A stretch of 64,000 nt of DNA from Bacteroidia bacterium (lineage in GTDB: Bacteria; Bacteroidota; Bacteroidia; AKYH767-A; OLB10): assembly GCA_037045145.1 (NCBI GenBank), contig JBAOIA010000012.1, forward strand, positions 235,210-299,209. The letters are read 5' to 3'. Below are positions 26,479-44,097 of the stretch, piece by piece. The translations under genes were made by a program, and so were the position numbers. Every line of letters begins with the position of its first letter. Positions within the stretch are counted from its first letter, which is position 1. Under the pieces are notes generated by a model that searched no databases, was not told the DNA's origin, and saw only the letters and a list, made by a program, of their open reading frames with translations.

Positions 26479-26515
26479 CCCCGTACCTGCGAAGCTGTGC
26501 TTCGTGGGGTTTGTG
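26479..26515. repeat. REP-like hairpin, left arm of RAYT unit 1
   Basis: CCCCGTACCTGCGAAGCTGTGCTTCGTGGGGTTTGTG. A second related hairpin, GGAAGC-TGC-GCTTCC, follows at 26518-26532. Confidence 0.7.
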
Positions 26516-26545
26516 CAGGGAAGCTGCGCTTCCGATAAAAAACAC

Positions 26546-27076
26546 TTACATACTTAACACCTTAATCGGGCTGTTTTCGTTTGCGATGCTTAACCTCCAT
26601 AAATGCGGTTCATCAACAAAACCTGCTTCAACAGGATTACGATGTATGTAATCAACCTTTTGGTCTATGATGCGGTTAGAGTATAATTCAAATGCGTGAT
26701 TATCGTGTTGCCAAAACTGTTTTTCCTGTTTATGTGATGATAGTCTGCCATAAAACTTAAATTCTTTCATCAACCATTCGCGCCTGCTTTCCAGCATATT
26801 TTCTTCTATAGACTGCATTATCGTTTTAGCGGTAAAAGATTTCATATCACGCATTAAATCATTTAAAGTTCCTTCTTCTCTTGATGCAATTATGTGAACA
26901 TGGCTTGGCATGATGCAGTAGCAATATAGTTGCAGCCCTTTGTTTTTTTGGCAGTAAATAATACTGTCTGTAACTATATCCTGATACAATCGCCTTGTGA
27001 AAATATCAACCCAGCCAATGGTTGTAATTGTTACAAAATATAAACCGCCCGGAAAAGTTTTATAAACTTCAGACAT
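26546..27076 (-). CDS. REP-associated tyrosine transposase (RAYT; IS200/IS605-like Y1 HUH transposase)
   Basis: HUH motif SHVHIIA and the catalytic-Tyr helix VDYIHRNPVEAGFV. The start is taken at MSEVYKTFPGGLYFVT. Confidence 0.8.
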   Translation of the reverse strand: MSEVYKTFPGGLYFVTITTIGWVDIFTRRLYQDIVTDSIIYCQKNKGLQLYCYCIMPSHVHIIASREEGTLNDLMRDMKSFTAKTIMQSIEENMLESRREWLMKEFKFYGRLSSHKQEKQFWQHDNHAFELYSNRIIDQKVDYIHRNPVEAGFVDEPHLWRLSIANENSPIKVLSM

Positions 27077-27144
27077 TTGTTGTTTGCATATATGCAAAAA
27101 TGATAATTTTTAGATCAGTATATGATTGAAGTAAAACTTCCAAA

Positions 27145-27181
27145 CACAAAACCCACGAAGCACAGCTTCGCGGGTACGGGG
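27145..27181. repeat. REP-like hairpin, right arm of RAYT unit 1
   Basis: CACAAAACCCACGAAGCACAGCTTCGCGGGTACGGGG, the inverted copy of 26479-26515. Confidence 0.7.
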
Positions 27182-27212
27182 ATGCTGCGCTTATGAATTT
27201 GAGTAATTTCAT
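27182..27212 (-). pseudogene. 31-nt stump of a sixth paralog (start codon plus about 10 codons, MKLLKFISAA..)
   Basis: The segment 27182-27240 parallels the junctions at 30238-30295 and 31795-31852. It has the same 12-nt spacer, the same upstream CTD end, and ATGCTGCGCTTAT identical to the ATG-proximal arm of the SP-2 palindrome. The gene stops abruptly at REP1-R. Confidence 0.7.
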
Positions 27213-27225
27213 TTTACAACAAAAG

Positions 27226-28809
27226 TTATTCAACTATAAATTTCTTTACCAATCTTTCTTTTTCTGTTTGCAACGAAACAATGTACATGCCTTTTGCAAG
27301 TGCGCTGCAATTAATATCCTGTGTAAAATAACCTCCTGCGCTACCCCCAACCCCTGAAGGGGAGAGCCTACGCGCAGTGTTATAAATTAGATTGCCTGTA
27401 ACATCGTATATGGTTAGCGTTATACTTTTTCCTTTTAAATGCTGCGCATTTACAAACAGCTTTTGCCATGAAGCTATGTAGGTAACAAACAACTCCGCTC
27501 CCTTTGCTGATGTTGCAAGAGGTGCTATACCTGTTAGTGTATCACACGCACTACCTGCTATTGCTCCAAGTTCATAATTCGGATTATTAGGCAAGCCCAA
27601 GTATGTTCTCTTACCGCCAAGATAAAAACTGTAAGGCTGAAAATCACATGCCGAACCTAAACTATCAGGCTGGTTTATTACTGACAAGTTCATATTGTAC
27701 ATATTATAGACAGTATCAGGGTATGGGTAAGGAAACATAATTCCATTGTTGTACCAACATGCCAAATAAATTTTGCCATCGGATGCAAGTTTTAAACCAC
27801 CCCCAGCATAATTTGGAAAAGTCAACGCCCACAACGTATCCTTAGTAAGCGAAATATTCGCTGCGTTTAAATCATATTGAAATAAGTAAGTAGTATTTGG
27901 AGATGCGGTTACATACAACTTACTTTCATCGGGTGAAAATTCACAACTCCATGTAAAAGGATAGGGTGGCATACCCGCATCAGGCTCTATAGTAACGGGA
28001 TTATTTAACAATCCTGTGCAACGGTCAAAATCATAAAGTTCTATTAAACCCAACCAATTGGTAAATACCAATTTTTCGCCATCAGGCGAAAAATTGGTAT
28101 GCGCTCCTCCTGTTCTGTTTTGCGAACCAACGGACTGAACGGATAAATTCTGAATTCCGTTAGGAGTTATTAAATAGCTGTACCAATCGTTATTTGAACT
28201 AAATGTGAGTGCATCTGATTTTCTGAATAATAACCACCAATCTCTTCCGTTGCCATGCTTAACAGCATTTAAGCAATCCACTTGTTCAAAGCTTTGCAGT
28301 TGAACATTTTTAACTGTTACAGCACCCAAGCCGTTATTCAATCGCATATCTATTACGCTATAAACAATACCAAATGTATCGGTAATACTTATTGAGAAAA
28401 GGTAATATGTGCTGTCATTTGCAGGATTTGGAATTATAACCAATTCCTGATACCACAACCTGCCTACAATAGAATCCCCATTAAGCATTATATCATGATT
28501 TCTATCAAAAACAAAAGTTGCCATCTCTGTATTAGAAGCATATGCACGCATAGTAGCCGCATAAAACAACAGTTGTCCATTACTATCCGCAATGCTTACA
28601 CAACTGCCTCTTCCGTCAACAGAAGAAGAAAAAGTTACAGGTATTCCGCTTGAAAAATCAATACCAGCACTATCACCAAAACACCATACCGAGTTCCTAT
28701 TTTGTGAAACGCAAAAAAAATGGCAGCAACAAAGTGTTGCTGCCATTATTAAACATTTTAAACTATTTAATAACCACAAACCGTTTTTTAAAATATTCGC
28801 CTGCTTCAT
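27226..28809 (-). CDS. paralog A: T9SS-sorted secreted beta-propeller-like protein (SP-1 signal, CTD variant alpha)
   Basis: Shares the family motifs SVWCFGDS, GRGSC.SI.D..G.LLFY, KHGNGRDWW, FSPDGEKL, YDFDRCTG and LKLA.DGKIYL. The C-terminal about 90 aa has a Por_Secre_tail-like pattern (ITLTIYD..G...INCSALAKGMYIVSLQTEKERLVKKFIVE). The start is uncertain: 28809 overlaps gene B, and the conserved ATG is at 28746. Confidence 0.75.
   Translation of the reverse strand: MKQANILKNGLWLLNSLKCLIMAATLCCCHFFCVSQNRNSVWCFGDSAGIDFSSGIPVTFSSSVDGRGSCVSIADSNGQLLFYAATMRAYASNTEMATFVFDRNHDIMLNGDSIVGRLWYQELVIIPNPANDSTYYLFSISITDTFGIVYSVIDMRLNNGLGAVTVKNVQLQSFEQVDCLNAVKHGNGRDWWLLFRKSDALTFSSNNDWYSYLITPNGIQNLSVQSVGSQNRTGGAHTNFSPDGEKLVFTNWLGLIELYDFDRCTGLLNNPVTIEPDAGMPPYPFTWSCEFSPDESKLYVTASPNTTYLFQYDLNAANISLTKDTLWALTFPNYAGGGLKLASDGKIYLACWYNNGIMFPYPYPDTVYNMYNMNLSVINQPDSLGSACDFQPYSFYLGGKRTYLGLPNNPNYELGAIAGSACDTLTGIAPLATSAKGAELFVTYIASWQKLFVNAQHLKGKSITLTIYDVTGNLIYNTARRLSPSGVGGSAGGYFTQDINCSALAKGMYIVSLQTEKERLVKKFIVE
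28720..28746. repeat. SP-1 perfect palindrome (12-bp arms, 3-nt loop) containing the start ATG of paralog A and followed by U8 on the mRNA
   Basis: ATGGCAGCAACA-AAG-TGTTGCTGCCAT on the plus strand, with A8 at 28713-20 whose last A (28720) is the first stem base, i.e. 7 A beyond the stem. Confidence 0.85.
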
Positions 28810-30268
28810 TCTTTATTCTAATATTATACACTCCGTCAGAAAGCGAAGATACATCAATGCTGCCATTTGTGCCATTAGTTTGTTTTTCTATTATCAGTCG
28901 CCCGTAAATGTCGTAAACAACCAGTTCATTTTTTGCATCGCTTAATCCTGATATAAACAAGATGTTGTTTACAGGGTTGGGGTAAATGTTTATTAAGTTC
29001 CCCTTTGGGGGATTTAGGGGGCTTATGCCTGTCAACGTATCACACGCACTTCCCGCTAACGCCCCCAACTCATAATCCGGATTATTAGGCAAACCTCCGT
29101 AAGTTCTTTTGCCACCAAGATAAAATGAGTAGGGTTGTAAATCACATGCTGAGCCTAAGCTGTTGGGAGAGTTAATGGTGCTTAAATACATATTGGTGTT
29201 ATTATACATAGTGTCGTTATAAGGATAATATTGATAATAACTTGTTGCTAAATAAATTTTACCGTCAGGAGCAAGCTTTAAATCGTCCATAGTTTCATTA
29301 AAATGAGTTTGTCGCAATGTATCAACACTTGCAGCAATATTGGTTGCCGTTAAATCAAACTGATACAGCCGCGATGTATCGGTTGATTGTATGGGTATGC
29401 CGGATATATAAAGTAAATTATCGTCAGGCGAAAAACATGCGCCCCAATAACAACCAAATGGAGCTTGCGTGGGTTCAGGATAAATGGTTTGCAAATTACT
29501 TAATTGCCCTGTGCATCTGTCAAAGTCATACAATTCCAATAAGCCAACCAAGGTATAATATACCATTTTATTGCCATTATTTGAAAATTGAATTCTGCCA
29601 AACCCATGATTAGTTGCAAACCCAATATTTTGCGGCATGGAATCGGAAACACCCGCTGGCGAAATCAAATATTTGTAAAAAGTGTTGTTAATATTATTCC
29701 ACCTCCGGTTAATAATCCACCAGTCTCTTCCGTTGCCATGTTTAATGGCTTTTAATCCGTCAGCGCTTTTGTAATTATGTAACTGCACATTTTTTTGAAT
29801 CACTTCGCCTAATCCGCCATTGGCGCTCATATCAACTATGGAATAATATAAACCTAACTGACTACTACCCGTTACGCCAATGGAAAAAACATAATATTGA
29901 TTGTTGTTAGATGGATTATCAATAATTAAAACTTCATGGTACCAGGCTTGCATAACAATAGAATCACCATTTTGCATGATTTGATGTTGTTTATTCCAAA
30001 TTTCACCATTTTGAAATGGCGGACCTCCGGCAGCCCATGTATCTGTATTATAACCTGCATAAAATAACAGGCTTCCGGCACTGTCGGCAATGCTTGCACA
30101 ACTGCCGCGCGATTTTACCATGCTGCTGCCTGTTATGATATTGGCAGTATCACTAAAATCAACCAGCGCACTGTCGCCAAAGCACCACACGCTGCCCTGC
30201 TTTTGCGCATTTGCAAAATAAGCGCAGCATATAAGAAATGCTGCGCTTATGTATCGGAGTGATTTCAT
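28763..30268 (-). CDS. paralog B: T9SS-sorted beta-propeller-like protein (SP-2 signal, CTD variant beta)
   Basis: 501 aa. The CTD reads IYPNPVNNILFISGL...VVYDIYGRL...IDVSSLSDGVYNIRIKNEAGEYFKKRFVVIK. Confidence 0.8.
   Translation of the reverse strand: MKSLRYISAAFLICCAYFANAQKQGSVWCFGDSALVDFSDTANIITGSSMVKSRGSCASIADSAGSLLFYAGYNTDTWAAGGPPFQNGEIWNKQHQIMQNGDSIVMQAWYHEVLIIDNPSNNNQYYVFSIGVTGSSQLGLYYSIVDMSANGGLGEVIQKNVQLHNYKSADGLKAIKHGNGRDWWIINRRWNNINNTFYKYLISPAGVSDSMPQNIGFATNHGFGRIQFSNNGNKMVYYTLVGLLELYDFDRCTGQLSNLQTIYPEPTQAPFGCYWGACFSPDDNLLYISGIPIQSTDTSRLYQFDLTATNIAASVDTLRQTHFNETMDDLKLAPDGKIYLATSYYQYYPYNDTMYNNTNMYLSTINSPNSLGSACDLQPYSFYLGGKRTYGGLPNNPDYELGALAGSACDTLTGISPLNPPKGNLINIYPNPVNNILFISGLSDAKNELVVYDIYGRLIIEKQTNGTNGSIDVSSLSDGVYNIRIKNEAGEYFKKRFVVIK
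30218..30250. repeat. SP-2 perfect palindrome (13-bp arms, 7-nt loop) inside the signal-peptide codons of paralog B
   Basis: ATAAGCGCAGCAT-ATAAGAA-ATGCTGCGCTTAT. It encodes ISAAFLICCAY on the minus strand. Confidence 0.85.
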
Positions 30269-30280
30269 TTAAAACAAAAG

Positions 30281-31825
30281 TTATTCAACAACAAATTTAT
30301 TTACCAATCTTTCTTTTTCTGTTTGCAACGAAACAATGTACATGCCTTTTGCAAGTGCGCTGCAATTAATATCCTGTGTAAAATAACCTCCTGCGCTACC
30401 CCCAACCCCTGAAGGGGAGAGCGCACGCGCAGTGTTGTAAAATAACTTGCCTGAAATATCGTATATGGTTAGTGTTATATTTTTTCCTTTTAAATGCTGT
30501 GCATTTACAAACAACCTTTGCCATGATGCCATGTAGGTAACAAACAACTCCGCTCTCTTTGCTGATGTTGCAAGAGGTGCTATGCCCGTTAATGTATCGC
30601 ATGGGCTGCCTGATATTGCAGGCAGTGTATAATCAGGATTATTAGGTAAACCTCCGTAAGTTCTTTTGCCACCAAGATAAAATGAGTAGGGTTGTAAATC
30701 ACATGCTGAGCCTAAGCTGTTGGGAGAGTTAATGGTGCTTAAATACATATTGGTATTATTATACATAGTGTCCTTATAAGGATAATATTGATAATAGCTT
30801 GTTGCTAAATAAATTTTACCGTCAGGAGCTAATTTAAGAAATCCCATAGATGCATTAAAATGAGTTTGCCATAATGTATCGGCACTGGCAGCTATATTGG
30901 TTGCCGTTAAATCAAGCTGATACAGCCGCGATGTGTCGGTTGATTGTATGGGTATGCCGGATATATAAAGTAAATTATCGTCAGGCGAAAAACATGCTCC
31001 CCAATACCAGCGTAAGGGAGCCTGTGTGAGTTCAGGGTAAATGGTTTGTAAATTACTTAATTGCCCTGTGCATCTGTCAAAGTCATACAATTCCAATAAG
31101 CCAACCAAGGTATAATATACCATTTTATTGCCATTATTTGAAAATTGAATTCTGCCAAACCCATGATTAGTTGCAAACCCAATATTTTGCGGCATGGAAT
31201 CGGAAACACCCGCTGGCGAAATCAAATATTTGTAAAAAGTGTTGTTAATATTATTCCACCTCCGGTTAATAATCCACCAGTCTCTTCCGTTGCCATGCTT
31301 AATGGCTGTTAATCCGTCAGCGCTTTTGTAATTATGCAACTGTACATTTTTTTGAATCACTTCGCCTAATCCGCCATTAGCGCTCATATCAACTATGGAA
31401 TAATATAAACCTAACTGACTACTACCCGTTACGCCAATGGAAAAAACATAATATTGATTGTTGTTAGATGGATTATCAATAATTAAAACTTCATGGTACC
31501 AGGCTTGCATAACAATAGAATCACCATTTTGCATGATTTGATGTTGTTTATTCCAAATTTCACCATTTTGAAATGGCGGACCTCCGGCAGCCCATGTATC
31601 TGTATTATAACCTGCATAAAATAACAGGCTTCCGGCACTGTCGGCAATGCTTGCACAACTGCCGCGCGATTTTACCATGCTGCTGCCTGTTATGATATTG
31701 GCAGTATCACTAAAATCAACCAGCGCACTGTCGCCAAAGCACCACACGCTGCCTTGCTTTTGTGCATTTGCAAAATAAGCGCAGCATAGTAAAAATGCTG
31801 CGCTTATGTATCGGAGTGATTTCAT
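30281..31825 (-). CDS. paralog C: chimera of a B-like body and a D-like tail (SP-2 signal, CTD variant alpha)
   Basis: 514 aa. It is near-identical to B over the N-terminal region at a 1557-nt offset. The C-terminal about 130 aa are near-identical to D. Confidence 0.8.
   Translation of the reverse strand: MKSLRYISAAFLLCCAYFANAQKQGSVWCFGDSALVDFSDTANIITGSSMVKSRGSCASIADSAGSLLFYAGYNTDTWAAGGPPFQNGEIWNKQHQIMQNGDSIVMQAWYHEVLIIDNPSNNNQYYVFSIGVTGSSQLGLYYSIVDMSANGGLGEVIQKNVQLHNYKSADGLTAIKHGNGRDWWIINRRWNNINNTFYKYLISPAGVSDSMPQNIGFATNHGFGRIQFSNNGNKMVYYTLVGLLELYDFDRCTGQLSNLQTIYPELTQAPLRWYWGACFSPDDNLLYISGIPIQSTDTSRLYQLDLTATNIAASADTLWQTHFNASMGFLKLAPDGKIYLATSYYQYYPYKDTMYNNTNMYLSTINSPNSLGSACDLQPYSFYLGGKRTYGGLPNNPDYTLPAISGSPCDTLTGIAPLATSAKRAELFVTYMASWQRLFVNAQHLKGKNITLTIYDISGKLFYNTARALSPSGVGGSAGGYFTQDINCSALAKGMYIVSLQTEKERLVNKFVVE
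31775..31807. repeat. SP-2 perfect palindrome in paralog C
   Basis: ATAAGCGCAGCAT-AGTAAAA-ATGCTGCGCTTAT. The arms are identical to the B copy and the loop differs at 3 of 7 positions. Confidence 0.85.
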
Positions 31826-31837
31826 TTAAAACAAAAG

Positions 31838-33409
31838 TTATTCAACAACAAATTTATTTACCAATCTTTCTTTTTCTGTTTGCAAAGAAACAATATACAT
31901 GCCTTTTGCAAGTGCGCTGCAATTAATATCCTGTGTAAAATAACCGCCTGCGCTACCCCCAACCCCTGAAGGGGAGAGCACTCGCGCAGTGTTATAAATT
32001 AGCTTGCCTGTAACATCATATAGGGTTAGTGTTATATTTTTCCCTTTTAAATGCTGCGCATTTACAAACAATTTTTGCCATGATGCCATGTAGGTAACAA
32101 ACAACTCCGCTCCCTTTGCTGATGTTGCAAGAGGTGCTATACCCGTTAATGTATCACAGGGACTGCCTGATATTGCAGGCAGTGTATAATCAGGATTATT
32201 GGGTAAACCAAGATATGTTCTTTTGCCTCCGAGATAAAAACTGTAAGGCTGAAAATCACATGCAATTCCTAAACTATCAGGTTGGTTTATTACTGACAAG
32301 TTCATATTGTACATATTATAAACAGTATCCTGATATGGATAAGGAAATTGAACTCCATTATAATATATGCTGGCTAAATAAATTTTATTGTCTGGAGCTA
32401 ATTTTAATCCGCCTCCAGTATAAAGAGGATAGTTGGTTGTCCAAAGTGTATTTTTACTTTGTGAGATATTTGACGCATTTAAGTCATATTGAAATAGGTA
32501 AGTAGTATCATCTGCTGTTGTTACATATAATTTGCTTGCATCGGGTGAGAATTCACAACTCCAAGTATATGGCACTGATGGCAATGCTTCCGGTTCAATG
32601 GTAACAGGATTGCTCAATAATCCTGAACAACGGTCAAAATCATATAGCTCAACCAACCCAATCAAATTGGTAAATACCAATTTTTCGCCTGATGGCGAAA
32701 AATTGGTATATCCTGAGTTGGTTTTGTTTAATGAACCTATTGACTGAATGGAAAAATTCTGAACGCTGACAGGTGTAATTAAATAAGAATACCAGTCATT
32801 GTTGCCATTTGATAAAGAACCTGCTTTTCTGAATAATACCCACCAGTCCCTTCCATTGCCATGCTTAACGGCATTTAAGCAATCAACCTGCTCAAAGCTT
32901 TGCAGTTGAACATTTTTAACCGTCACAGCCCCCAAGCCGTTATTCAGCCGCATATCAATTATGCTGTAATATAAGCCATATATGCTCGTTACTCCAATAG
33001 AAAATAAGTAATAGGTGCTGTCATTAGCCGGATTGGGTACTATTACCAATTCCTGATACCAACCTCTGCCAACAATATTATTTCCGTTTTGCATTACCTG
33101 ATGAGTTGTATCAAAAACTAATGTGGTGTTGCCACTTATTGTGGCTCTTGTTTCGGCATAGAAAAGAAGTTTACCATTTTCATTTGCAATTGATGCGCAT
33201 GAACCTCTGGTATCTAATCCACATGAGCCAACTATAATATTTGAAGTATCACTGAAGTCAATTAAAGCGCTGTCGCCAAAGCACCACACCGAATTACGGT
33301 TTTGCGCATAGGAAAAGAAATGGCAGCAACAGAGTGTTGCTGCCATTAATGAAAATTTTAAATTATTTAATAACCACAAACCGTTTTTTAAAATATTCGC
33401 CTGCTTCAT
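31838..33409 (-). CDS. paralog D: T9SS-sorted beta-propeller-like protein (SP-1 signal, CTD variant alpha)
   Basis: 523 aa with the same family motifs. The start is uncertain: 33409 overlaps E, and the conserved ATG is at 33346. Confidence 0.75.
   Translation of the reverse strand: MKQANILKNGLWLLNNLKFSLMAATLCCCHFFSYAQNRNSVWCFGDSALIDFSDTSNIIVGSCGLDTRGSCASIANENGKLLFYAETRATISGNTTLVFDTTHQVMQNGNNIVGRGWYQELVIVPNPANDSTYYLFSIGVTSIYGLYYSIIDMRLNNGLGAVTVKNVQLQSFEQVDCLNAVKHGNGRDWWVLFRKAGSLSNGNNDWYSYLITPVSVQNFSIQSIGSLNKTNSGYTNFSPSGEKLVFTNLIGLVELYDFDRCSGLLSNPVTIEPEALPSVPYTWSCEFSPDASKLYVTTADDTTYLFQYDLNASNISQSKNTLWTTNYPLYTGGGLKLAPDNKIYLASIYYNGVQFPYPYQDTVYNMYNMNLSVINQPDSLGIACDFQPYSFYLGGKRTYLGLPNNPDYTLPAISGSPCDTLTGIAPLATSAKGAELFVTYMASWQKLFVNAQHLKGKNITLTLYDVTGKLIYNTARVLSPSGVGGSAGGYFTQDINCSALAKGMYIVSLQTEKERLVNKFVVE
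33320..33346. repeat. SP-1 perfect palindrome containing the conserved ATG of paralog D
   Basis: ATGGCAGCAACA-GAG-TGTTGCTGCCAT. It is followed on the mRNA by UUCUUUUCC. Confidence 0.85.
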
Positions 33410-34865
33410 TCTTTATTCTAAGGTTATACACTCCGTCAGAAAGCGAAGATACATCAATGCTGCCCGCTGCAGAAGCATTCTTCTTTAATAATAATCTGCC
33501 GTAAATATCATACACCTCTATTTCATTTTTGCCTTCAGGCATTCCGCTAACATACAATGTGCTGTTGGCGGGGTTGGGAAATATCCTCACCCCACCCCTC
33601 TCCAAAGGAGAGGGAGCTATGCCTGTAAGTGTATCACACACACTACCCGCTACCGCCTCCAACTCATAATCAGGATTATTAGGTAAACCAAGATATGTTC
33701 TTTTGCCTCCGAGATAAAAACTGTACGGCTGAAAATCACATGCTGCGCCTAAGCTATCAGGTTGGTTAATTACTGATAAGTTCATATTGTACATGTTGTA
33801 AACACTATCCCTGTAAGGATAATAATTAGAGGCATTATAATACACATTACTCAAATAGATTTTGTTATCAGGAGCCAACTTTAATCCTCCTATTGCATAA
33901 GGAAATAAATTAAATGACCATAGAGTATCTTTGCTTCCGGGAATATTGGGTGCGTTTAAATCGTATTGAAATAAATATGAAGTAGTTTGATTGGTGGTAA
34001 CATATAACTTACTTTCATCAGGAGAAAACTCACAACTCCAAATAAATGGATAAGGAGGGTTACCTAAATCAGGTTCTATAGTAACGGGATTATTTAACAA
34101 TCCTGTGCAACGATCAAAATCATAAACTTCAATCAAACCCAACCAATTGGTAAATACCAATTTTTCGCCATCAGGCGAAAAATTGGTATGCGCTCCTCCT
34201 GTTCTGTTTTGCGAACCAACGGACTGAACGGATAAATTCTGAATTCCGTTAGGAGTTATTAAATAGCTGTACCAATCGTTATTTGAACTAAATGTGAGTG
34301 CATCTGATTTTCTGAATATTAGCCACCAATCTCTTCCGTTACCATGTTTAACGGCATTTAAGCAATCCACTTGTTCAAAGCTTTGCAGTTGTATATTCTT
34401 AGCAGTAACTGCTCCTAATCCACCATTCTGTTTCATATCTATGATGCTGTAAACAAGTCCGTTATTACCAGTGACATTTATTGAAAAAAGATAATATACA
34501 CTGTCGTTGGCAGGATTAGGAACAATTACCAATTCCTGATACCAACCTTCTCCAACAATAGAATCTCCATCTTGCATTACTGATCCTGTTGAATTAAAAA
34601 CAAAGGTTGAATTATCAATACTTATGGCATACTTGTACATTGTTGCTGCATAAAAAAGTAAATTCCCGTTATTGTCTGAAATGCTGACACAGCTTCCCCG
34701 ACTATCCATTCCTGATTGAAAAGTAACAGGTAATCCCGAACCAAAATCTATTCCCGCACTATCGCCAAAGCACCATACGCTATTTCTATTTTGCGCATAA
34801 GAAAAAAAATGGCAGCAACAAAATGTTGCTGCCATTAGTAAGCATTTTAAATTAAGTGATTTCAA
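33363..34865 (-). CDS. paralog E: T9SS-sorted beta-propeller-like protein (SP-1 signal, CTD variant beta)
   Basis: 500 aa. The ORF track uses a TTG start at 34865, and the conserved ATG is at 34835. Confidence 0.75.
   Translation of the reverse strand: MKSLNLKCLLMAATFCCCHFFSYAQNRNSVWCFGDSAGIDFGSGLPVTFQSGMDSRGSCVSISDNNGNLLFYAATMYKYAISIDNSTFVFNSTGSVMQDGDSIVGEGWYQELVIVPNPANDSVYYLFSINVTGNNGLVYSIIDMKQNGGLGAVTAKNIQLQSFEQVDCLNAVKHGNGRDWWLIFRKSDALTFSSNNDWYSYLITPNGIQNLSVQSVGSQNRTGGAHTNFSPDGEKLVFTNWLGLIEVYDFDRCTGLLNNPVTIEPDLGNPPYPFIWSCEFSPDESKLYVTTNQTTSYLFQYDLNAPNIPGSKDTLWSFNLFPYAIGGLKLAPDNKIYLSNVYYNASNYYPYRDSVYNMYNMNLSVINQPDSLGAACDFQPYSFYLGGKRTYLGLPNNPDYELEAVAGSVCDTLTGIAPSPLERGGVRIFPNPANSTLYVSGMPEGKNEIEVYDIYGRLLLKKNASAAGSIDVSSLSDGVYNLRIKNEAGEYFKKRFVVIK
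34809..34835. repeat. SP-1 perfect palindrome containing the conserved ATG of paralog E
   Basis: ATGGCAGCAACA-AAA-TGTTGCTGCCAT. It is followed on the mRNA by U7CUU (A8 at 34802-34809, whose last A is the first stem base). Confidence 0.85.
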
Positions 34866-34866
34866 A

Positions 34867-37800
34867 TTATTTAATTACAATAAATCTCGTTCTAAAATAC
34901 TCATCTGTCTCATTTCGTATCCTCAGATTATAAATACCTTCTGCCAGCGAAGATACGTCAATTACGCCACTGCTGCTGTTATTTTGCTTTGTAAATAATA
35001 ACCTGCCATAAAGGTCGTAAACCTGCATTTCATTTTTACCATCACTCATTCCTGTTACCAACAGCAAGCTGTTGGCTGGGTTAGGTTGTATGCGTACCTT
35101 ATCAGCCGGCAGTGTTTTTTCAGGCAATTCATTCTGAGTATGACTGCCACCCTGCCGCAATGCGGGCAATTCAGGAGAGTAATATTCCTTACCGAGCAAG
35201 GCTGCCGCACTGTAAACGCTCTTGCCCGCTATGAGCCAGTGCTGCGCCAGCAGGCTTTCCAACGCTGTGGTGTCTGTTGCATCAAGCGTATCACCTGCTG
35301 CCAGCTTGCCGATAATAAGGCTGTTGATGAGCTTATAGTTGGCTTCCATATCATTGCTTTCGGTAATGCTGCTGTTAATGGTTGCAGCAGCAGCAATGTC
35401 ATCGGCTTTAATAGCCTGCTTTACGGAGTCAAACTTGCCTATGTTGGCATTGAGCATGACATTGTAAAATGCGCGGAATGATGAGTCAGCCGCGCTGCCT
35501 GTGGTGAGCAGTGTGGTGTCAGCGCTGAGCCGTTTGAACAGGGTTTCTTTAGCAAGGTATTTAGCCTCATCTGCATAACTATCGTACACAGCAGAATCAC
35601 CCACTACGGGACCAAATTCTTTATCTCTGTCAATATCGACATTGGTAAATAACGCGGTTGCACAATCAGTATTTGAACTTGCTTCATTATCATCCGCTAA
35701 AATAACATTCCCATTATAAGGATCAGGAGTAAATAAATTATTTACGTCTGTTTCATCTCCTTGAAAATACCATTTAAAAGGTGATGCTACCTGCAAGTAT
35801 CCATCCACTTTCATTAAAGCATTGTTTGAAGTAATCCATTGATTATCCCATGCGTTATTTGCAGTTCCCTGAGGTGAAAATTGTGCGTTTTCATACCAAA
35901 TACCTTTGTTATAATCAGTCATCACATTATTTTTCAGCCGCGTGGTTTGGCAATCGCCCTCAAAGCGCAGGGCATAGCCGAGGCGTGTAATGCCGTTGCC
36001 GCATATATTCAGGTTTTGAGAATTGTCGGCAGCAATGCCGCGTATTTTATCAGCATTATAAGCAACAACGCTGTTGTTATAAATGTCGTTCGCTTTAATA
36101 ACAGCATCGTTGCAGTCCTGTATAAATATGCCTGAATACATTTGGCTTGTTTCTAATCCGTCATCAGCCTCCATAGCAATGGTGTTGGGCAAAAGGCTGC
36201 TGCCGTCCGTTCCAACGCTTATGCCCGGTGTGTTGTTGGCATATATTCCTATTCGCGCTCCGGTTATGGAGTTGTCTGTAATAGTTACTGCGCTGTTTGC
36301 GCCCTGCTCATATAATACCCTTATGCCATAATCGCCAGTTGCATAAATGTTATTATGGTCAACGGAAACGGCATTGCCTGTGGTGGCTGTGCTGTTTATA
36401 TAAACGGCAGAAGTAGGAACAGTTAAATCGGCAGGTGTTTTTACATGCAAATCGTTACCGGTAATCTGAATAGTGTTGCTGCCGCATTTTTCAACCAAAA
36501 TGTTGTTTTTGCTGTTGCTCATGGCATTCTGGTTGCATTTAACAAAGCTGCCTGCAAGCTTTCCGTTGCAGTTAAACATCCTGTACCCTGCTTCGGCACA
36601 GTTGTTTATTGTGTTTTGTTCCATCCTCAACTGCTCAGTTACATTGCCAATGCCATACCTCATGTTTTCAAATGTGTTGTGCAAAATAATTTTATCATCA
36701 TTGGCATTGGCGGCTTCGCCCAATATTAAAGCTCCGTAGCCGGTGGGCGAGGTTATAAGCGGATAAGCCAGTAACCGCGCCTGTGACACATCGGGTACAC
36801 GCCCCGGTGCATCTTTAAAATAATTGTACCGGATGTTATAGTCAACGGGGTTTACTAATCTTATACCATAGTCCATGTCAGAAAAAACATTTTGCTCATT
36901 TGCTGCGCCAATGGTTAAATCGGATGGCGCGAGGAGCAGAATATGGTTAAACGATTTGTCGCCATATTCATAAACCGCTCTTCCGCTGCACCTGAAAATG
37001 CAATTATGTATTTGCATATTGCTGTAATCCGTTACGCCCGCCCCTAATTCAACTATGCCGTAAAAATTATGGTCGAATAAGGTATTGGATAAATTAATAT
37101 TTGTAATGGATGAGGAATTGCCGTTAATTGCAATAGCTGCTTCGGCATCTTCCATATCGGAATTGGTTATTTCCAGCTCGGAAGTGCCGTCAGCAAGCAC
37201 AATGCCTTTCCATAACACATTACAACCGAAAAAACGGCTGTCTTGTACATCTAGCTTTTTGCCTGCATCAACATATATTCCCACTCCCTGGCTGCAAATT
37301 ACTGTTTTGTTGTTAAATAAATTAAAATCGGCATCTACCGTAAAATCATCCGTAAGATATACCACATCAGGAGTTATAACGCTGATTGCGCTTGCAATGT
37401 TATTTCCACTATTAATAGTAAATGTGCTGCTGACGCACAATGTTGAAGATAATGTGCCGCACACATCGGGCTGCGGCTGCAAAGCAAGGTTTTTGTCTTC
37501 GGCAATAACTATTTGGTCAACTAACACGTTTCCGTTAATGCTGTTAATGGATAATGTATATTCCTGATTATCGAGTTGGCTCAATAAAATAGGAGATAAA
37601 CTGTTTGGCAAAAACCGATACCAATTCCAGTCACTGCTGCTAATACAGCTTAACGTACAAACGGGAGTACCGTCCAATTTAATTTCAAGCTGGCTGCCTG
37701 AACCGGCATCTTTGGCTTTTATCCAAACATAATAATCGGTATCATCAACTCTGGGGTGAAATTTATATTCAACAGGGGCACTTCCTGCTGCAAAAGAAAT

Positions 37801-39540
37801 ATAAGTGGTAAAGTTTCTATAATCACCAGAAGATGTTCCACCCGGTACAGATGTAACACGGGTTACATTTGCAGGTGCAGAAACATTATCCCACACCTCG
37901 GCTTCAAACCAAAAATCTTTGCTCCAGCGGTCAGGGTGCTTATATTCATGCCATGCATCAAGCTGGTAGAATACAGGAGGATTAACAGAAGCATCGAAAA
38001 TGTAAGTGCTGCCCTGCCTGCGAACGTTAAACTGCAAGTCGTAAGTGGATGTGCTTCCGCCTGCATTATCAGCCAAATGTATTTTGGCTGCTTTTTCCAA
38101 AGGAGCATTGCCTTTTACATTGGAGTAAGGTTGAACGGTACCGGTGATGACGTATTTTTCTATAGCATTATCTTTTCTGGAAAGCACCAACACATCAGGT
38201 GAACTAGATTTAAAGGCGTACATCATATCGGGCGCAGCAGAATTACCCGGCTCTTGTAATCTGTCACCTTCAAGCAAATGTCCATCTATAATTAAATCAG
38301 CAAATCGGTCCGCTATTGCATGTGCGTAAGCAGGTGTTGCAGCTTGCCAAACATAACCTTTAGGTTCAACAACATCTGGAAGTGCAAAAACATGAAAGAA
38401 ATCAGATCCAAGAACAGAGACTGCCTTTAACAATCCAAGCCATTGCCCGGGTCTTAAATTATCTTCTTCATTATGAGCCCATCCGGGTGCAACAAATGGC
38501 GCATTTATATAATCCCCGTTATTTAATTCTTCTTTTTTGCTTCTGGTCAGCCATAAAAATCCGTGATCTGCAGAGCGAGATTCTCTAAGCCAGTCTTCTG
38601 GTCTTCTTGGATAAAAGTCAGGCGTAGCAAGCCTGACATTTACGGGCGTTGAACCGTATTGTACAACCGATTGGGTTTCTCTTAATTCATTATAGCGGTA
38701 TCTTGCTTGATCGTAATTGATTCCGTTATTAGTTACTAACTTCCAATGACCATCAACAGCATAATTTAGAAATATGGTTCCATCAGAAACAAGTTTTGAA
38801 ATATTCATAAAATTGTCCCTATAATCATTGTCAAGTTCTTTTCCCTTTGTTGCCATAAATTCTTCCCATTTTAATGGTGTATCAGCATTTCCAGATAAAA
38901 ATGTAATGTAAGCAGATGACAATGGAGTAGAAGATAATGTATTTCTTAAATTATAAATTGCTTTATGAGAAACCTCATTATTTTCAGAAATTACTTTGAC
39001 TTTTGCAGAAATTCCGTTTAAAATAGTTTGTAAATAATCATTCTGCAATAATCCATCTGTTGCATACACATCTCTTTTGTTTGAAAAAATATTTCCTGTT
39101 CCTGTTCCAAATGCCGGGCTGTAATTCCAAAAATGTGTACCACTGTTGTTTCCTTCAAAATTATAAAACATACTTGACTTATAAAGATAAAAATCCTCAT
39201 CACTAACGGTAACAGTACCAAAATTTGTAAAGCTTGTAGCGTTTTGTTCCCTGATCCAGGAGTTGGTAATTCCAGGAGGCACTTTATTAACAAGAGATGA
39301 TGGCAATGAATGTCCAAGATCACTTGTACTATAACTTAATTGAGCACGATTTGTTATAATTCCTATTTCATCAGTTGAATTAAAATTTGTTGCTGCATAA
39401 TTAATATATTGTTGATTTTCGGGATCAAGATATGTTCTCGTGTTTTCACAAATATTGAATAAATAATACCAATTTTTATACAGTTCGAGCTGTACATTTA
39501 AGGATCTTGTTCCATCATGTTCTCCAAGATAGTTACTCCC
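34867..39540 (-). pseudogene. C-terminal fragment (1,557 codons) of a giant T9SS-sorted protein split by RAYT unit 2
   Basis: The frame is open from 39540 down to the stop at 34867. The ORF track reports only 34867..39306 from an internal TTG. A TAG contributed by the inserted element (39541-43) lies immediately upstream. The fragment contains PbH1-type beta-helix repeats, a CBM-like segment and the CTD IQPNPANSLLLVTG...IDVSSLAEGIYNLRIRNETDEYFRTRFIVIK. Confidence 0.7.
39505..39540. repeat. 36-bp direct repeat, left copy (flanks RAYT unit 2)
   Basis: TCTTGTTCCATCATGTTCTCCAAGATAGTTACTCCC, identical to 40192-40227. Confidence 0.9.
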
Positions 39541-39569
39541 CTACTGGCGCAAGTCTTCAGACTTGTGCC
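39541..39569. repeat. REP-like hairpin, left arm of RAYT unit 2
   Basis: GGCGCAAGTC-TTCA-GACTTGTGCC (one G-T pair). Confidence 0.7.
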
Positions 39570-39601
39570 ATCCTGTCATTAAAAATTGCACATTTGCAAC
39601 C

Positions 39602-40153
39602 ATGAGTTCCAAGTATAAGTTTCACACTCCTGATGCCATATATTTTGTTACTTTTTCGGTTATAAACTGGATTGATGTTTTTACAAGAAACGGTTATAAA
39701 GATATTTTAATTGACAGTATAAAACATTGCCAAAAAGAAAAAGGCTTAGTGGTTCATGCTTGGGTTATTATGACCAATCATGTACACATGATTATTTCTA
39801 AAAACGGAACATGTGTGCTGCCTGATATAATGCGCGACCTTAAAAAATTTACAGCCTATAAAATTACAGGGGCAATTATGGAAAATTCTCAGGAAAGCAG
39901 GCGCGAATGGATGTTTAATCTTTTTAAACGGGCTGGTGAAAGAAATTCCAACAATACAAACTGGCAGTTTTGGCAACAGGATAATCATCCTGTTGAATTA
40001 ACTGATGCAAGAATGCAAGAACAAAAATTAAATTACATACATGAAAATCCTGTGCGGGCAGGATTTGTTTATAACCCTGAAGACTATGTGTACAGTAGCG
40101 CAACGGATTATTGCGGCAGCAAAGGGCTTATTGACTTAGTGCTGCTTGAATGA
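39602..40153 (+). CDS. REP-associated tyrosine transposase (RAYT) paralog
   Basis: MSSKYKFHTPDAIYFVT..., HUH motif NHVHMII, Tyr helix LNYIHENPVRAGFV. It is about half identical to the RAYT at 26546 by eye. The ATG at 39602 is preferred because the TTG at 39563 lies inside the hairpin. Confidence 0.8.
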   Translation: MSSKYKFHTPDAIYFVTFSVINWIDVFTRNGYKDILIDSIKHCQKEKGLVVHAWVIMTNHVHMIISKNGTCVLPDIMRDLKKFTAYKITGAIMENSQESRREWMFNLFKRAGERNSNNTNWQFWQQDNHPVELTDARMQEQKLNYIHENPVRAGFVYNPEDYVYSSATDYCGSKGLIDLVLLE

Positions 40154-40159
40154 TAGTAG

Positions 40160-40191
40160 GGCGCAAGTCTGAAGACTTGCGCCAGTGGGGG
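40160..40191. repeat. REP-like hairpin, right arm of RAYT unit 2
   Basis: GGCGCAAGTC-TGAA-GACTTGCGCC, a perfect 10-bp stem. Confidence 0.7.
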
Positions 40192-40227
40192 TCTTGTTCC
40201 ATCATGTTCTCCAAGATAGTTACTCCC
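40192..40227. repeat. 36-bp direct repeat, right copy
   Basis: Identical to 39505-39540. Confidence 0.9.
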
Positions 40228-42989
40228 TAACCAATTAAAATTTCTCCTTAATGTTCTATTAGATTTGTATCTTGGTAAAGGATATGCTTTCAGTTGTTCA
40301 ATAACATTTTTAACTTCACTGTAATTTCCTGTTCCGGGAGCGTATCCAAACGGATAATCGTTTTCATCATACTGTCCGGCATTTGTAAATGTAAGTGGAC
40401 TATAGGGCGAAGTGTTTTGGGTGAAAACATTTAAAGAAGTGGTATTTAATCCATGTTGTTCAATTGTTTTATCACACAATTCATTTTGTAAATAAATAGC
40501 CACCTGATCGAAATAACCACCCATGTTCGTATGCTCACTACTGGTTTTTAAATTTAAATCCATCCCGGTTCCATTTATAAAAAGGCCTGTTATTGATGCA
40601 TTAATAATATCTTTACTAAAACCTTCATTGAGTTTTCCATCAATCCATATTTGCTTTTGATAATGATGAGCAGCAATTTTTTTATGAACAAAACAGAAGT
40701 AATGCCATGAGTCGTTAGTATAATAACCAAAAGATTTTTCATTAATTCCATCGAAAGGAATAAAAAAACTTTCATAAGGTATTGCTGTCGATCCGGTTAT
40801 TCCTGAATAATCGGTACTAAAACTGATACCGGTTTGATCAATTGATGCGCTGTGTACGCCATTTTGTATTCTAAAAAATCCGGCAGAAGCTCTGTTTGCA
40901 AAATTTCCATCAAACCTCACATACATTTCAACTGCAAAATATTCAGATGTTTGATCAATTAACACATTGGGTACATATAAATCTGTTCCGTTATCGCTAA
41001 GTAATGAATAACCTGTATTTGGAATTCCGGAATTACTTACCAGTGTATTAGTTCCACTTGAAGACAGTGTCGTAGAAAATATGGCAGGGCTGGAACTAGC
41101 AAAGTTATTGGCATCAAAATTATAATAGTAATCAGGTGCAATTGCACCTGAAATACATGATGCAAACACAAATGCCGTGTATCCTAAAGTAAAGTTACCA
41201 AAGCTGTTTAGGTTGCTGGCATTTGTTGCCGAACCAACAGTTCTGTCTCCGGATAAGGCAACTGTTCCCAAATCACTCCATTGCGTACCGTTCCATCTTG
41301 CCAATTTAACTTTTGAGCTGTCAAAAACACTGCTGTATCTATTCCAAGATAAGGTAACTTTAACCTGTGAGCTGCCTGTATTCCGCGCTAAATTCCAATA
41401 GTTGCTTCCATTTATATAATCAATGCCTGATTGCCGTGCATTTGGGTCGTTTGGTAATGCTCCTGCAAAATACTCTCCCGTAAACGCATCGGTTGTGTTT
41501 GAAGGTGCAGAAATTCCAATTGCCCTGCAGCTGTTTCCCTTTCCTGTTGGAAACACAAATGCGCTGTTGCCGATTTTCTTAACAGGCCCGTCAATATAAC
41601 TGCTGTCGCTTGCTCCGCTCACAGTGCCACCGTTGTTTATGGTAAGCAAATTGCTGCTTGTGGTGGTGAGCGTGCCTTTTGCAAACGTTACCGTTCCGCT
41701 TACAGCCAATGCAGTTGCCAGTGTTGCACTGCCTCCACTTTTGTTCAGCATCAAGTTTTTCACAAGCGTGTTGCTGTGAAAGCTTAATAATTGTGTTCCG
41801 CTTCCTGCAAGGCACAAGGTGCCTGTGCCTGCATTAAAGGTGGTATTGTTTGCTGTGGTTATGTTTCCGTAAAACGAACTTACATCACCACCATAACACA
41901 CCCTCAGCTCGCGTGAGCCGCCAAAGGTGGCATCGGCATAGTAGGTATTGGAAGTATCGGCATCAAGCCGCAGGTTACCCGCGCTGGCATTGTTGGTAAA
42001 GGTGGCATTGCCATAAAACTTATTGCCGCCATACCAACTGCTGCTGCCGCTGCCTGTGGCGGTAAACGATGCCGTTCCGTTAAAATTACAGTTTTTAAAT
42101 AACAGCGAGTTGGATGTAATGCTGAAATCACCTCCGAATGTAGCTCCTGTTATGCTTGGCAATGCCGATCCTGTAAAGGTGAGGCTTATGGCAGTGCTGC
42201 CATCCTGATAAAAATTAGTGGCATTAAAATCACCTGCTGAAAAACCTCCGCTGCCTATGCTTATGGTATGCCCTGCTGTAAGCGTATCGTTACCCAGCAG
42301 AATTCCTCCTGCTCCGGTATTTATTAAAACCATATCGCCATTGAACACATTAATGCCCGCTCCTGCAAAGGTTATTTCTTTTGTTCCTTTGTTATGTATG
42401 GTTACCTTACCGTTAAAGCGGTGCCCTGTGCTGTTGTTCATTACCCACACTCCTGCACCTGTATAATTATGATAGAGGTAAACGCTGTCGTTAAACACCG
42501 CTCCACCGCTTCCTGTGCCGGGTACATCGGTAATGGTTTCAAAATAGCAATAATTATTAAACGTAGCGGCATTGAGATCAATACGGCTCACCACTGCATT
42601 AATCACCACATTAAACGTGGTGCTGCCAAATGTCATTTGCGTGCCTGTAAGCTCAAGCCTTCCATTGCTGATAGTGCCTCCACTAAATACGCTAGATCCG
42701 GAGTTCAATACCAATGTATCGCCATTGCAATTTAAGGTTCCGCTATGCATGGTCATTCCGCTAAGTGTTTTTTTGCCGGGCAGGGTGGGATTGAAAGTAG
42801 CACTATAAATATGCACATAATCTCCACTTCCCGGCACGCCTGCAGGCGACCAGTTGGATGTGGTGTTCCAGGCTGTGCTTGTGCCGCCTGTCCAGGTGTA
42901 GGTTGTTGCTAACGACAGCAGCCCGCTCAGTATAAGCGCTGCCGTTAAAATCAGTTGGATATATTTTTTCATGATAGATAGTTTAAGAA

Positions 42990-43403
42990 TTAATTTGAAA
43001 CAAATGAATAAACGCTGCTCCATACGCCCGATTCTTTAATGCGTACTTCTCCAAAATATGCACTCTGTTGGTCATAATCGCCAATGTCAACGGCAATAAT
43101 ATTTCCGCTGCGCGAATAGGAAAAACCCGGAGGAAGACTTGCCGGTGTATCGTAAACAAACGATTCATTTATCATGTCATATAAATTCCAGTCGGTTCCT
43201 AATTTAATTTCAATATTTGTTATGTTTACTGTGTCGGGAATTTCAATGTAGTAAGTTCCATGCATTATGCCTACTGTTGGAGTGGTTCTCATGCTCACAA
43301 AGGCATCGGATGGTTGTGCATTTGCTGCTGCCGCCATCAGCAGAAGCAGAGCAGTGAACAAGCTAACGCAAGCTGCACTGCATGTTTGTTTGAATGATTT
43401 CAT
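42990..43403 (-). CDS. small secreted hypothetical protein, first gene of the accessory block
   Basis: 137 aa with a signal peptide ending AANAQ. It ends 17 nt upstream of the giant-gene start. Confidence 0.5.
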   Translation of the reverse strand: MKSFKQTCSAACVSLFTALLLLMAAAANAQPSDAFVSMRTTPTVGIMHGTYYIEIPDTVNITNIEIKLGTDWNLYDMINESFVYDTPASLPPGFSYSRSGNIIAVDIGDYDQQSAYFGEVRIKESGVWSSVYSFVSN

Positions 43404-43437: not shown

Positions 43438-43665
43438 TAGCTGAAAAGGGGGAAAAGCGATTTATCATAGCCTCTATTTTTTTCCTATTGGAGATTATTT
43501 TTTTCCTCATAGGAAAATAACAGGAAAAAAAAGGAAACCGAATACATGTCCTATTTAAAATATAAAATCTTTTTGCTTATGGATCTTTATAATATTCTTC
43601 AAAAACTTGCTTTTTTTAAGAAAAAACATTTACTTAGTGATTCCAAACCACATTTATACAGCACA

Positions 43666-44097
43666 ATGAAAATCTATGAAAAAATAAAGGAGTTTATTAA
43701 AACAAGAAGTATTCAATTAAAAGAATTGGCTCCTGTGCTTGGTATTACCCAGGGACAGTTAAGTAAAATTATTAATGGGAAAACCCGTAATATCAAAAAC
43801 GAATACATTAAAAAGTTGGAAGCACATTTTGATACGAAATTTTCCAATCATAATGATCATGAAAGAATAGAATGGATTGAAAAACCTTCATGTGAAGAAG
43901 AAAAAGTAATTTTTTCTATTTACAAAGAACTTAAGAGCCAAAAAAGCCTTGCAGAAAAACAGATACGACTCAGCCATTCGTTCCGGAAAGCTTTAGCGCT
44001 AATTCAATATAATGCCAATAAAGAGAGGTTTATTAACACGGCTGAATTTAAAAGTTGGCTTAATGATAATAATGCTACAGATGAAAAAGATCAATAA
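43666..44097 (+). CDS. XRE-type helix-turn-helix transcriptional regulator
   Basis: MKIYEKIKEFIKTRSIQLKELAPVLGITQGQLSKIINGK is a canonical HTH_3 pattern. The start is moved from 43546 to the ATG at 43666. Confidence 0.6.
   Translation: MKIYEKIKEFIKTRSIQLKELAPVLGITQGQLSKIINGKTRNIKNEYIKKLEAHFDTKFSNHNDHERIEWIEKPSCEEEKVIFSIYKELKSQKSLAEKQIRLSHSFRKALALIQYNANKERFINTAEFKSWLNDNNATDEKDQ

Follow-up and report, generated by a model that had tools for sequence, protein, structure and literature searches.

The 64,000-nucleotide stretch analysed here (hereafter the window) comes from an uncultured Bacteroidia bacterium of wastewater and sludge, and one interval of it, positions 26479-43403, adjoins rplT-infC-thrS and carries a tandem array of five paralogous genes, cassettes A to E, whose products end in a sorting domain of the type IX secretion system (T9SS). 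We propose that the interval holds a hypervariable tandem array, made up of beta-propeller paralogues secreted by the T9SS, which was probably shaped by ordinary recombination, by slippage at palindromes and by insertion sequence (IS)-like REPtrons, that is, REP-associated tyrosine transposase (RAYT) genes flanked by repetitive extragenic palindromic (REP) sequences, and that a hairpin in the signal-peptide (SP) codons of the cassettes is probably a separate, family-specific feature. The sequence-only reading of the same DNA had suggested instead that the resident RAYTs shuffle or switch the cassettes by way of their hairpins. The features on which that suggestion was built are real and statistically striking, but they amount to three classes of hairpin with no relation to one another and to two REPtrons that have invaded, and not to a single system of cassette exchange.

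All five cassettes (A, 27226-28809; B, 28763-30268; C, 30281-31825; D, 31838-33409; E, 33363-34865) encode proteins of about 500 amino acids (aa) and lie head to tail on the minus strand, downstream of a large lead gene. Read along that strand, the order is a 137-aa open reading frame (ORF), the split lead gene, E, D, C, B, A, the start of a sixth cassette, the RAYT-1 element, rplT, infC and thrS. When perfect hairpins were counted in the window and compared with the expectation from dinucleotide shuffles, 9 with stems of at least 11 bp were found (0.1 expected), 8 of them within the interval, and 8 had stems of at least 13 bp (0.02 expected). The eight hairpins of the interval are five cassette palindromes, one in each of A-E, and three body palindromes with 16-bp stems in A, D and E. 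Every cassette does have a palindrome with a perfect 13-bp stem near its 5' end, as had been claimed, and it exists in two types: SP-1, AATGGCAGCAACA-n3-TGTTGCTGCCATT, in A (28719-28747), D (33319-33347) and E (34808-34836), and SP-2, ATAAGCGCAGCAT-n7-ATGCTGCGCTTAT, in B (30218-30250) and C (31775-31807). These palindromes do not lie between cassettes, however, but within the codons for the hydrophobic core of the signal peptide, where they encode MAATxCCCH and ISAAFLxCCAY, and they are absent from the two large lead ORFs as well as from one cassette in sister strains.

Our analysis found no support in the sequence for the SP palindromes as RAYT substrates. Neither SP-1 nor SP-2 has the C-run plus (G/C/T)AC foot of the REPs that flank the two RAYT genes, and their stems show no likeness to those of REP1 or REP2; the TnpAREP enzymes studied so far recognise, and depend for their activity on, features of the cognate REP, namely the 5' foot motif and the palindrome (PMC8266576). 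The same SP hairpins are found in homologues from other genomes, mostly with no RAYT-like ORF in the locus DNA examined (for example L013, L034, L053, L085, L104-L107, L109, L110 and L112-L114). A RAYT-like ORF lies within 10 kb at only 3 of 78 species-level family loci, and none of about 12 distinct junctions of the RAYT-2 element involves an SP hairpin. The idea that the resident RAYTs use the cassette hairpins as folded recombination sites is therefore not supported by the relationship of stems and feet, by the loci in which no RAYT-like ORF was found or by the position of the junctions.

A population view of the array was available from ten metagenome contigs (L001-L010) that encode exactly protein E. 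These carry the same rplT-adjoining locus with very different arrays, which range from E plus one cassette (L007) up to E plus a run of cassette genes and fragments, so that both cassette number and cassette content vary among the contigs. Mosaicism is also evident within the window: the bodies of B and C are about 100% identical and their C-terminal sorting domains (CTDs) differ, the CTD of C is of the type found in A and D, and A and E are the same over about 180 nucleotides (nt). The modules had been described as exchanged on either side of the hairpins. The exchange is real, but the points at which it occurred between strains lie just past the conserved WCFGDSA motif, in the conserved GLPNNPDY motif ahead of the linker, or at either end of the body palindrome, and none of those mapped lies at an SP hairpin. 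Furthermore, the CTD type of one gene and the SP type of the next were co-inherited in all six of six cases, and because of this linkage the SP hairpin sits inside a co-inherited block, not at its edge. The first of four processes that appear to shape the array is ordinary homologous recombination and gene conversion among the paralogues, which cross over where their coding sequence is best conserved; the positions of the crossovers are observed, and it is the mechanism that we infer.

A second process is palindrome-stimulated replication slippage and template switching, as shown by the 36-bp body palindromes of A (28065-28100), D (32674-32709) and E (34154-34189). These lie in the middle of the body, at about residue 230, and not at a module boundary, and they span the blade motif FSPDGEKLVF. 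Their 4-nt loop reads TGAT in some copies and ATCA in others, so that it is inverted between paralogues (in the window, in D relative to A and E). In three strain alleles (L002, L004 and L010) the palindrome is missing exactly between two 9-bp TACCAATTT direct repeats. It is this precise gain or loss between short repeats, together with the inverted loop, that shows the second process; such gain and loss is classical hairpin-stimulated slippage, for which a transposase is not needed.

The hairpins at the boundary between body and CTD belong to yet another class. GC-rich hairpins had been reported as a general mark of this boundary; they are present only in B and E, the most that A, C and D show being a weak stem with a bulge. 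The hairpin of B (29000-29021) is small (CCCCC-AAA-GGGG) and has no other copies in the loci examined, and was on that account rejected as a dispersed repeat. In E, by comparison, a REP-type palindrome at 33585-33614 (minus strand) lies in frame in the linker, where it encodes SPLERGGVR and reads, on the coding strand, CCCTCTCC-TTT-GGAGAGGG followed by GTGGGGTGAGG. It is a member of a dispersed element, CCTCACCCC-N3-CCCCTCTCC-N4-GGAGAGGGG, with intergenic copies at L028, L037, L038 (three) and L056, and in-frame linker copies in both orientations at L025, L038, L055, L113, L114 and in the window. These dispersed, tagged copies show that the hairpin in the linker of E is a mobile palindrome of the REP type that has been inserted in frame, and its cognate transposase is neither RAYT-1 nor RAYT-2. 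A second palindrome, TCCCGATAGCTATCGGGA, is nested within the linker REP of a cassette at L002 (4020-4080) and L103 (7110-7170), where it yields the peptide SPLE-NPDSYRE-GV, which is also found in protein P0095. Colonisation of the flexible linker, in frame, by this separate dispersed palindrome is another of the four processes.

The remaining process would be invasion of the array by two REPtrons, one fixed at the array end and one mobile and disrupting T9SS cargo genes. The observation that two intact RAYT genes of the HUH type reside in the locus is confirmed: the proteins score 100.2 bits (RAYT-1) and 107.4 bits (RAYT-2) against the NCBIfam model REP_Tyr_transpos (NF047646; cut-off, 80), are 49% identical to each other, and have aligned HVH and YIH(R/E)NP motifs (YIHRNP in RAYT-1). 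The Pfam Y1_Tnp match is just above its cut-off for the RAYTs, and the IS200 transposase model NF033573 gives 18.5 and 27.1 bits against a cut-off of 55. Each gene is flanked by its own inverted pair of REPs with a conserved 5' foot, as is typical of REPtrons, with REP1 corresponding to CCCCGTACC(C/T)GCGAAGCTGTGCTTCG(T/C)GGG and REP2 to CCCC(C/T)ACTGGCGCAAGTCTTCAGACTTG(C/T)GCC. No further copies of REP1 or REP2 are found elsewhere in the window; a few solo REP2-like hairpins occur in other metagenome contigs (L089, L090 and L093).

The RAYT-1 element (26479-27181) consists of the RAYT-1 gene (26546-27076, minus strand, 176 aa from ATG) between an outer REP1 copy on the rplT side (26479-26509, CCCCGTACCTGCGAAGCTGTGCTTCGTGGGG) and an inverted copy on the array side (27152-27181). 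It is always found at the rplT end, at the same position beside rplT in L001-L004 and L007, and no RAYT gene was called in the stretch of L009 examined; a single copy at one position in all strains is what is expected of an immobile, 'domesticated' RAYT. Its rplT-side junction is constant among strains, and its array-side junction takes three forms, in which ...GCAGCAT is joined to CCCCGTACCC, ...GGTTAACT to CCCGTACCC, or ...GCCTCTT to GTACCC. In the window the element does end at the foot of a cassette palindrome, as had been noticed: the array-side REP1 abuts the truncated start of the sixth cassette (27182-27212, minus strand; 31 nt encoding MKLLKFISAA), which stops after the whole left arm of an SP-2 palindrome (27182-27194), exactly at the boundary between arm and loop.

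RAYT-2 (39602-40153, plus strand, 183 aa) interrupts the lead T9SS cargo gene, whose N-terminal part lies at 40228-43023 and whose C-terminal part lies at 34867-39540 on the minus strand. The gene is flanked by a left REP2 copy (39538-39569, CCCCTACTGGCGCAAGTCTTCAGACTTGTGCC) and an inverted right copy (40160-40191), and the element sits between direct repeats of 37-39 bp at 39502-39540 and 40189-40227. The prediction that this repeat would permit clean excision holds in sequence, in that deleting 39541-40227 restores a single ORF of 2493 aa; the empty site is expected to read TTAATTGGTTAGGGAGTAAC...GGAACAAGATCCTTAAATG. As a general feature of RAYT-2 insertion the direct repeat was ruled out, since the other complete copies that were examined had none.

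When metagenome contigs were scanned without bias for the REP2 core, 15 further stretches were found, and in total the 644-bp REP2-RAYT-2-REP2 unit, either complete or recognised by its precise ends, was seen in at least eight different flanks. Because the unit recurs in so many flanks with no direct repeat at the other complete copies, RAYT-2, judged from its sequence contexts, appears to behave as an IS-like, currently mobile REPtron, and it is not a single-copy immobile RAYT as RAYT-1 is. Its neighbours are almost all genes with a Por_Secre_tail domain (the T9SS CTD), and no common target motif was seen among about 12 flanks; IS200/IS605 elements insert 3' of a fixed tetra- or pentanucleotide. 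Contexts of the unit include L096, L097, L098, L092 and L101, and in L096 two copies alternate with three CTD genes. REP2 also lies within the RAYT-1 gene in L010, L092, L099 and L101 and within a RAYT-2 copy in L001.

Among the strains, the RAYT-2 unit occupies a different place in L001-L004, L006 and L008, where on the right it meets the lead gene at a point 2.8 kb further in and on the left it borders either on a truncated cassette body or on a partial copy of RAYT-2, with REP2 units in tandem. The 2.8-kb difference beside the element is seen when the window is compared with L001 and L004, and L092 and L101 differ by a 24-nt deletion that adjoins the element end. RAYT- or hairpin-triggered breakage beside the REP feet may be responsible for such variation and deletion. 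The suggestion that RAYTs take part in the variation of the array is thus partly sustained, by polymorphic insertions, variable junctions at REP feet and nearby deletions, though this participation apparently does not proceed through the SP hairpins.

Examination of T9SS genes from other species identified RAYT-like genes beside them in 5 of 87 species-level loci (L011, L033, L044, L051 and L111). Together with the contexts of RAYT-2, these five loci suggest that REPtrons accumulate in T9SS cargo arrays, which could be the result of target preference, tolerance of insertion or co-duplication. At L044 (9366-12381), from another species, a RAYT gene is interrupted by the palindrome TCCCGATAGCTATCGGGA and is fused in frame to a T9SS CTD remnant, and together with a cassette it forms a 2537-bp unit that is repeated in tandem. 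The REP foot at this locus (CCCCCCACTG) resembles that of REP2, and at least eight tandem 20-nt repeats (TTTCAAAGAAGATAAGAGNA) lie directly upstream of its RAYT gene (9150-9369).

The SP hairpin is the most interesting item that remains, and it appears, on sequence comparison, to be a family-specific element whose conservation is that of nucleotides and does not depend on RAYTs. In the window and 115 loci, two classes of core are found essentially only at the signal-peptide position of family genes and are not dispersed, and the possibility that the SP hairpins are dispersed REP-type mobile palindromes was ruled out on this ground. Class I has an invariant core, GCAGCA-N9-TGCTGC, within the hydrophobic region, with outer pairs that co-vary. 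In class II, the codons for (L)PLFC pair with those of the mature N-terminus, Q(K/N)RGxx, and all four of four proteins chosen solely for the motif PLFCxxQ(K/N)RG have stems of 12-20 bp. Considering all perfect hairpins of at least 11 bp in the coding sequences of 1.33 Mb of loci plus the window, these cluster in the first 120 nt, where almost every one belongs to this family. Only about 10-25% of family members carry the hairpin; when the best perfect stem was taken from each of 110 genes of the family in other species, its length had a bimodal distribution, with 3-8 bp in 99 genes and 9-18 bp in the other 11. The start of the hairpin is never less than 18 nt past the start codon. As markers of tight tandem arrangement or terminators of the upstream cistron the hairpins were rejected, as no association was seen (7/11 vs 48/99, p=0.53). 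A single comparable case outside the family was seen in an unrelated T9SS cargo gene (L051, 7269-7298; 456 aa), where an 11-bp perfect stem pairs the signal-peptide codons for LLTPPSQ with those of the mature N-terminus QHWEGV, the same design as class II. We found nothing relevant in the literature on hairpins in T9SS signal-peptide codons.

Several lines of evidence point to the nucleotides, not the encoded residues, as what is conserved. The SP-1 and SP-2 stems show no differences at 234 compared positions, compared with differences of 29-44% in the loops and 20-42% in the flanks, and SP-2, with 13-nt arms, is unchanged between genes whose proteins share only about 53-55% identity (B of the window vs L104). 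At L013, a 4-nt loop puts the right arm in another frame, such that it encodes LLPLF in place of CCCHF with the nucleotides kept; the conservation is consequently not at the protein level. Double compensatory changes were observed at 6 of 14 pairs in class I and 11 of 20 pairs in class II, and the covariation score was matched by none of 500 shuffles in either class, although the sets compared were partly selected for containing hairpins. Pairing in the stems is almost entirely Watson-Crick, and no more than one or two G-T pairs were seen. The SP-1 hairpins also have the form of a predicted intrinsic terminator, with a GC-containing stem followed by a T-run on the transcribed strand, and all three rank just after REP1 among terminator-like sites of the minus strand; a clear T-run is missing from SP-2 and the class II hairpins. 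In Rfam, known RNA families were matched only below threshold; DapZ scored 30-33 bits, where the gathering score is 56. The DapZ matches cover SP-1 hairpins on the minus strand (28714-28792 and 33314-33392) and probably reflect their terminator-like shape.

Two explanations of the stems deserve about equal consideration, one being a selected cis-element and the other a self-perfecting DNA quasipalindrome. According to the first, which sequence patterns make quite possible, though short of probable, the SP hairpins are a cis-regulatory element of the mRNA that is unrelated to recombination, acting as a stem of the attenuator or terminator kind at positions +18 to +70, or else tuning stability or early elongation. 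Our leading guess for the role of the hairpin would accordingly be a cis-acting early-coding mRNA stem for attenuation, stability or translation. Such an element would account for the enrichment at a single position within this family, for two structurally distinct solutions (class I and class II) at the same place, for stems that stay identical while loops and flanks diverge, and for the compensatory changes and the conservation across a change of frame. It also fits the initiation region being left open, the ranking of SP-1 among the top terminator-like sites of the coding strand, with sub-threshold matches to the terminator-bearing DapZ model, and the occurrence of the hairpin in a stand-alone gene (L104). 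Bacteroidota do not use Shine-Dalgarno-guided initiation. Secondary structure is known to tune initiation in Flavobacterium (PMC6847099), which is also in favour of such a role. On the other hand, most of the family lacks the hairpin, there is no association with tight tandems, the T-run follows class I and not class II, and so few G-U pairs are unlike most selected RNA helices. A stronger version, in which the stems are a selected nucleic-acid element that represents a new control device of the early coding region in Bacteroidota, with the arrays perhaps also serving as preferred landing pads for REPtrons, we put forward only tentatively from these sequence comparisons.

The second explanation, which we hold to be possible without favouring it, is that the palindromes are non-adaptive products of template switching that survive wherever the protein tolerates them, that is, in the signal peptide, in the linker and in one blade motif. 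Quasipalindrome template switching and palindrome-stimulated deletion between short direct repeats are classical forms of replication-slippage mutagenesis. The seeds would be Phe, Leu and Cys codons of the signal peptide that are complementary to nearby Lys, Asn, Gln and Ala codons, with template switching then perfecting the arms and keeping the two identical. The perfect, Watson-Crick nature of the stems is as expected from such a process, as is the class II left arm, which is the reverse complement of the conserved QKRG/QNRG codons. The body palindrome likewise lies over the naturally complementary F..K codons of its blade motif, and its inverted loop and exact deletion between 9-bp repeats are hallmarks of replication hairpins. 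However, correction of one arm by the other keeps complementarity and not sequence, yet the 13-nt arms of SP-2 are identical across the protein divergence noted above; such hairpins are almost absent from the other signal peptides of the 1.33 Mb examined, the case at L051 being the one other seen; and the distribution of stem lengths is bimodal.

Several observations weigh against our overall proposal of separate hairpins and independently invading REPtrons. In addition to the partial selection of the covariation sets, the near-pure Watson-Crick stems fit a DNA-level origin at least as well as selection at the RNA level. A random break in a 1.5-kb cassette would be unlikely to place REP1 exactly at the arm/loop boundary of SP-2. 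Single-strand HUH transposition is not expected to duplicate its target, and the 37-bp direct repeat at the RAYT-2 copy of the window, found at none of the other complete copies studied, is unexpected for such a mechanism. RAYT-like genes lie beside T9SS genes in 5 of 87 loci, perhaps more than would follow from the 1-2 RAYT copies that each genome is reported to have in these subclasses (PMC6006769), and some real affinity of RAYTs or REPs for hairpin-rich arrays may exist.

Nevertheless, integron-like shuffling, in which RAYTs would cut and rejoin the cassette palindromes as folded single-strand sites, is very improbable: the half SP-2 palindrome beside REP1, RAYTs inside an array with junctions that vary among strains, the RAYT embedded in a same-family array with its repeated unit at L044, and palindromes that form hairpins in vivo, judged from the slippage deletion, could all be accommodated by it, but both RAYT elements disrupt or truncate genes with no clean exchange, and it is at odds with the REP-unlike stems, the hairpin-bearing loci with no RAYT-like ORF in the DNA examined and the absence of exchange points and junctions at SP hairpins.

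The Por_Secre_tail CTD is found at the end of all cassettes and of the lead gene, and is all that Pfam and NCBIfam find in the cassette protein. The cassette family has more than 1800 matches, all in uncultured Bacteroidia or Bacteroidota. An AlphaFold model of B (pLDDT, the per-residue confidence score, 77) shows a generic beta-propeller plus CTD, for which no specific structural neighbour was found. A longer member of the same beta-propeller family (764 aa) is encoded at 51828-54122 on the plus strand, 8 kb from the array.

At the array head, a 137-aa ORF with a signal peptide and without a family match (42990-43403, minus strand) overlaps the start of the lead ORF (42990-43023) in another frame, and the lead ORF has a signal peptide of its own from Met18 (MKKYIQLIL...); the two ORFs may be two genes or one frameshifted gene. 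Divergent from the array and upstream of its head lies a gene for an XRE/Cro-type helix-turn-helix (HTH) regulator (43546-44097, plus strand), which might control the array. The Bacteroidetes -7 promoter motif TAnnTTTG (TAAATTTG) is present on the minus strand upstream of B and C (about 30290-30310 and 31847-31867), within the last CTD codons (NKFVVE) of the upstream gene. It also occurs in L011, L012, L104 and L109, its place being either those final CTD codons of the preceding gene or, where a gene with an SP-2 hairpin stands alone, the DNA just ahead of it, and it was not seen at the SP-1 cassettes.

A RAYT-driven cassette switch would, if true, have represented a new class of diversification system; the evidence points instead to familiar forces, with recombination between paralogues, slippage at palindromes and invasion by transposons at work in an array for surface or secreted proteins that is dispensable and evolves fast. 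A whole REPtron that acts like an insertion sequence and is concentrated in T9SS cargo genes nevertheless bears on the debate over whether RAYTs are domesticated or selfish, and REP-type palindromes in frame in the linker before a T9SS sorting domain are worth knowing. Perfect stems of 12-20 bp are kept in signal-peptide codons across distant genomes, which, if functional, would offer a testable case of structural control from within a coding region, in a phylum with unusual rules of translation initiation.

Among known systems, the array resembles integron cassettes with attC sites only in having tandem units and palindromes that can fold in single-stranded DNA. It differs in that no integrase family matched among the minus-strand ORFs of the array, both RAYT genes and the HTH gene, in that its perfect palindromes lie in the 5' coding region and not at the 3' end of the cassette, where attC exchange sites would be expected, and are not exchange points, and in that every unit is a paralogue of the same gene. 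Replication-slippage mutagenesis is a closer match, as seen in the 36-bp palindrome lost between 9-bp repeats, the inverted loop and the perfectly complementary arms, but on its own it leaves unexplained the identical arms across distant genes and the enrichment in one gene family. The linker element of E behaves like intragenic REPs, which are already known to occur in frame, and Rickettsia palindromic elements (reviewed in PMC3733652), with intergenic dispersal, in-frame insertion in either orientation, a permissive protein segment and the possibility of nesting; its host site, the body/CTD linker of a T9SS cargo protein, is one for which we know of no earlier description.

Both RAYTs of the window resemble those of REPtrons of Bacteroidetes subclasses 2.6 and 2.4 (Quentin et al. 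2018, PMC6006769) in their length of about 180 aa, their (S/N)HVH, WQ and YIH(R/E)NP motifs, their two inverted hairpins with a conserved 5' foot, and the REPs within RAYT genes, which have been described for the Bacteroidetes/cyanobacterial subclass 2.4 (PMC6006769). They depart from that pattern in that the foot is a C-run plus (G/C/T)AC and not GTAG, and in that no dispersed population of REPs was seen in the 64-kb window. REPtrons appear not to move as units (PMC6006769), whereas the RAYT-2 unit of 644 bp occurs as a whole in no fewer than eight contexts, in the style of an insertion sequence. In this respect RAYT-2 is like IS200/IS605 elements, with a Y1 HUH transposase as its only protein, a hairpin at each end, a lack of target duplication at those other complete copies that were examined, and disrupted genes; unlike them, it has ends that are inverted repeats of each other (about 32 bp) instead of distinct hairpins, it scores as a RAYT and below the IS200 cut-off, and one of its copies has a 37-bp direct repeat.

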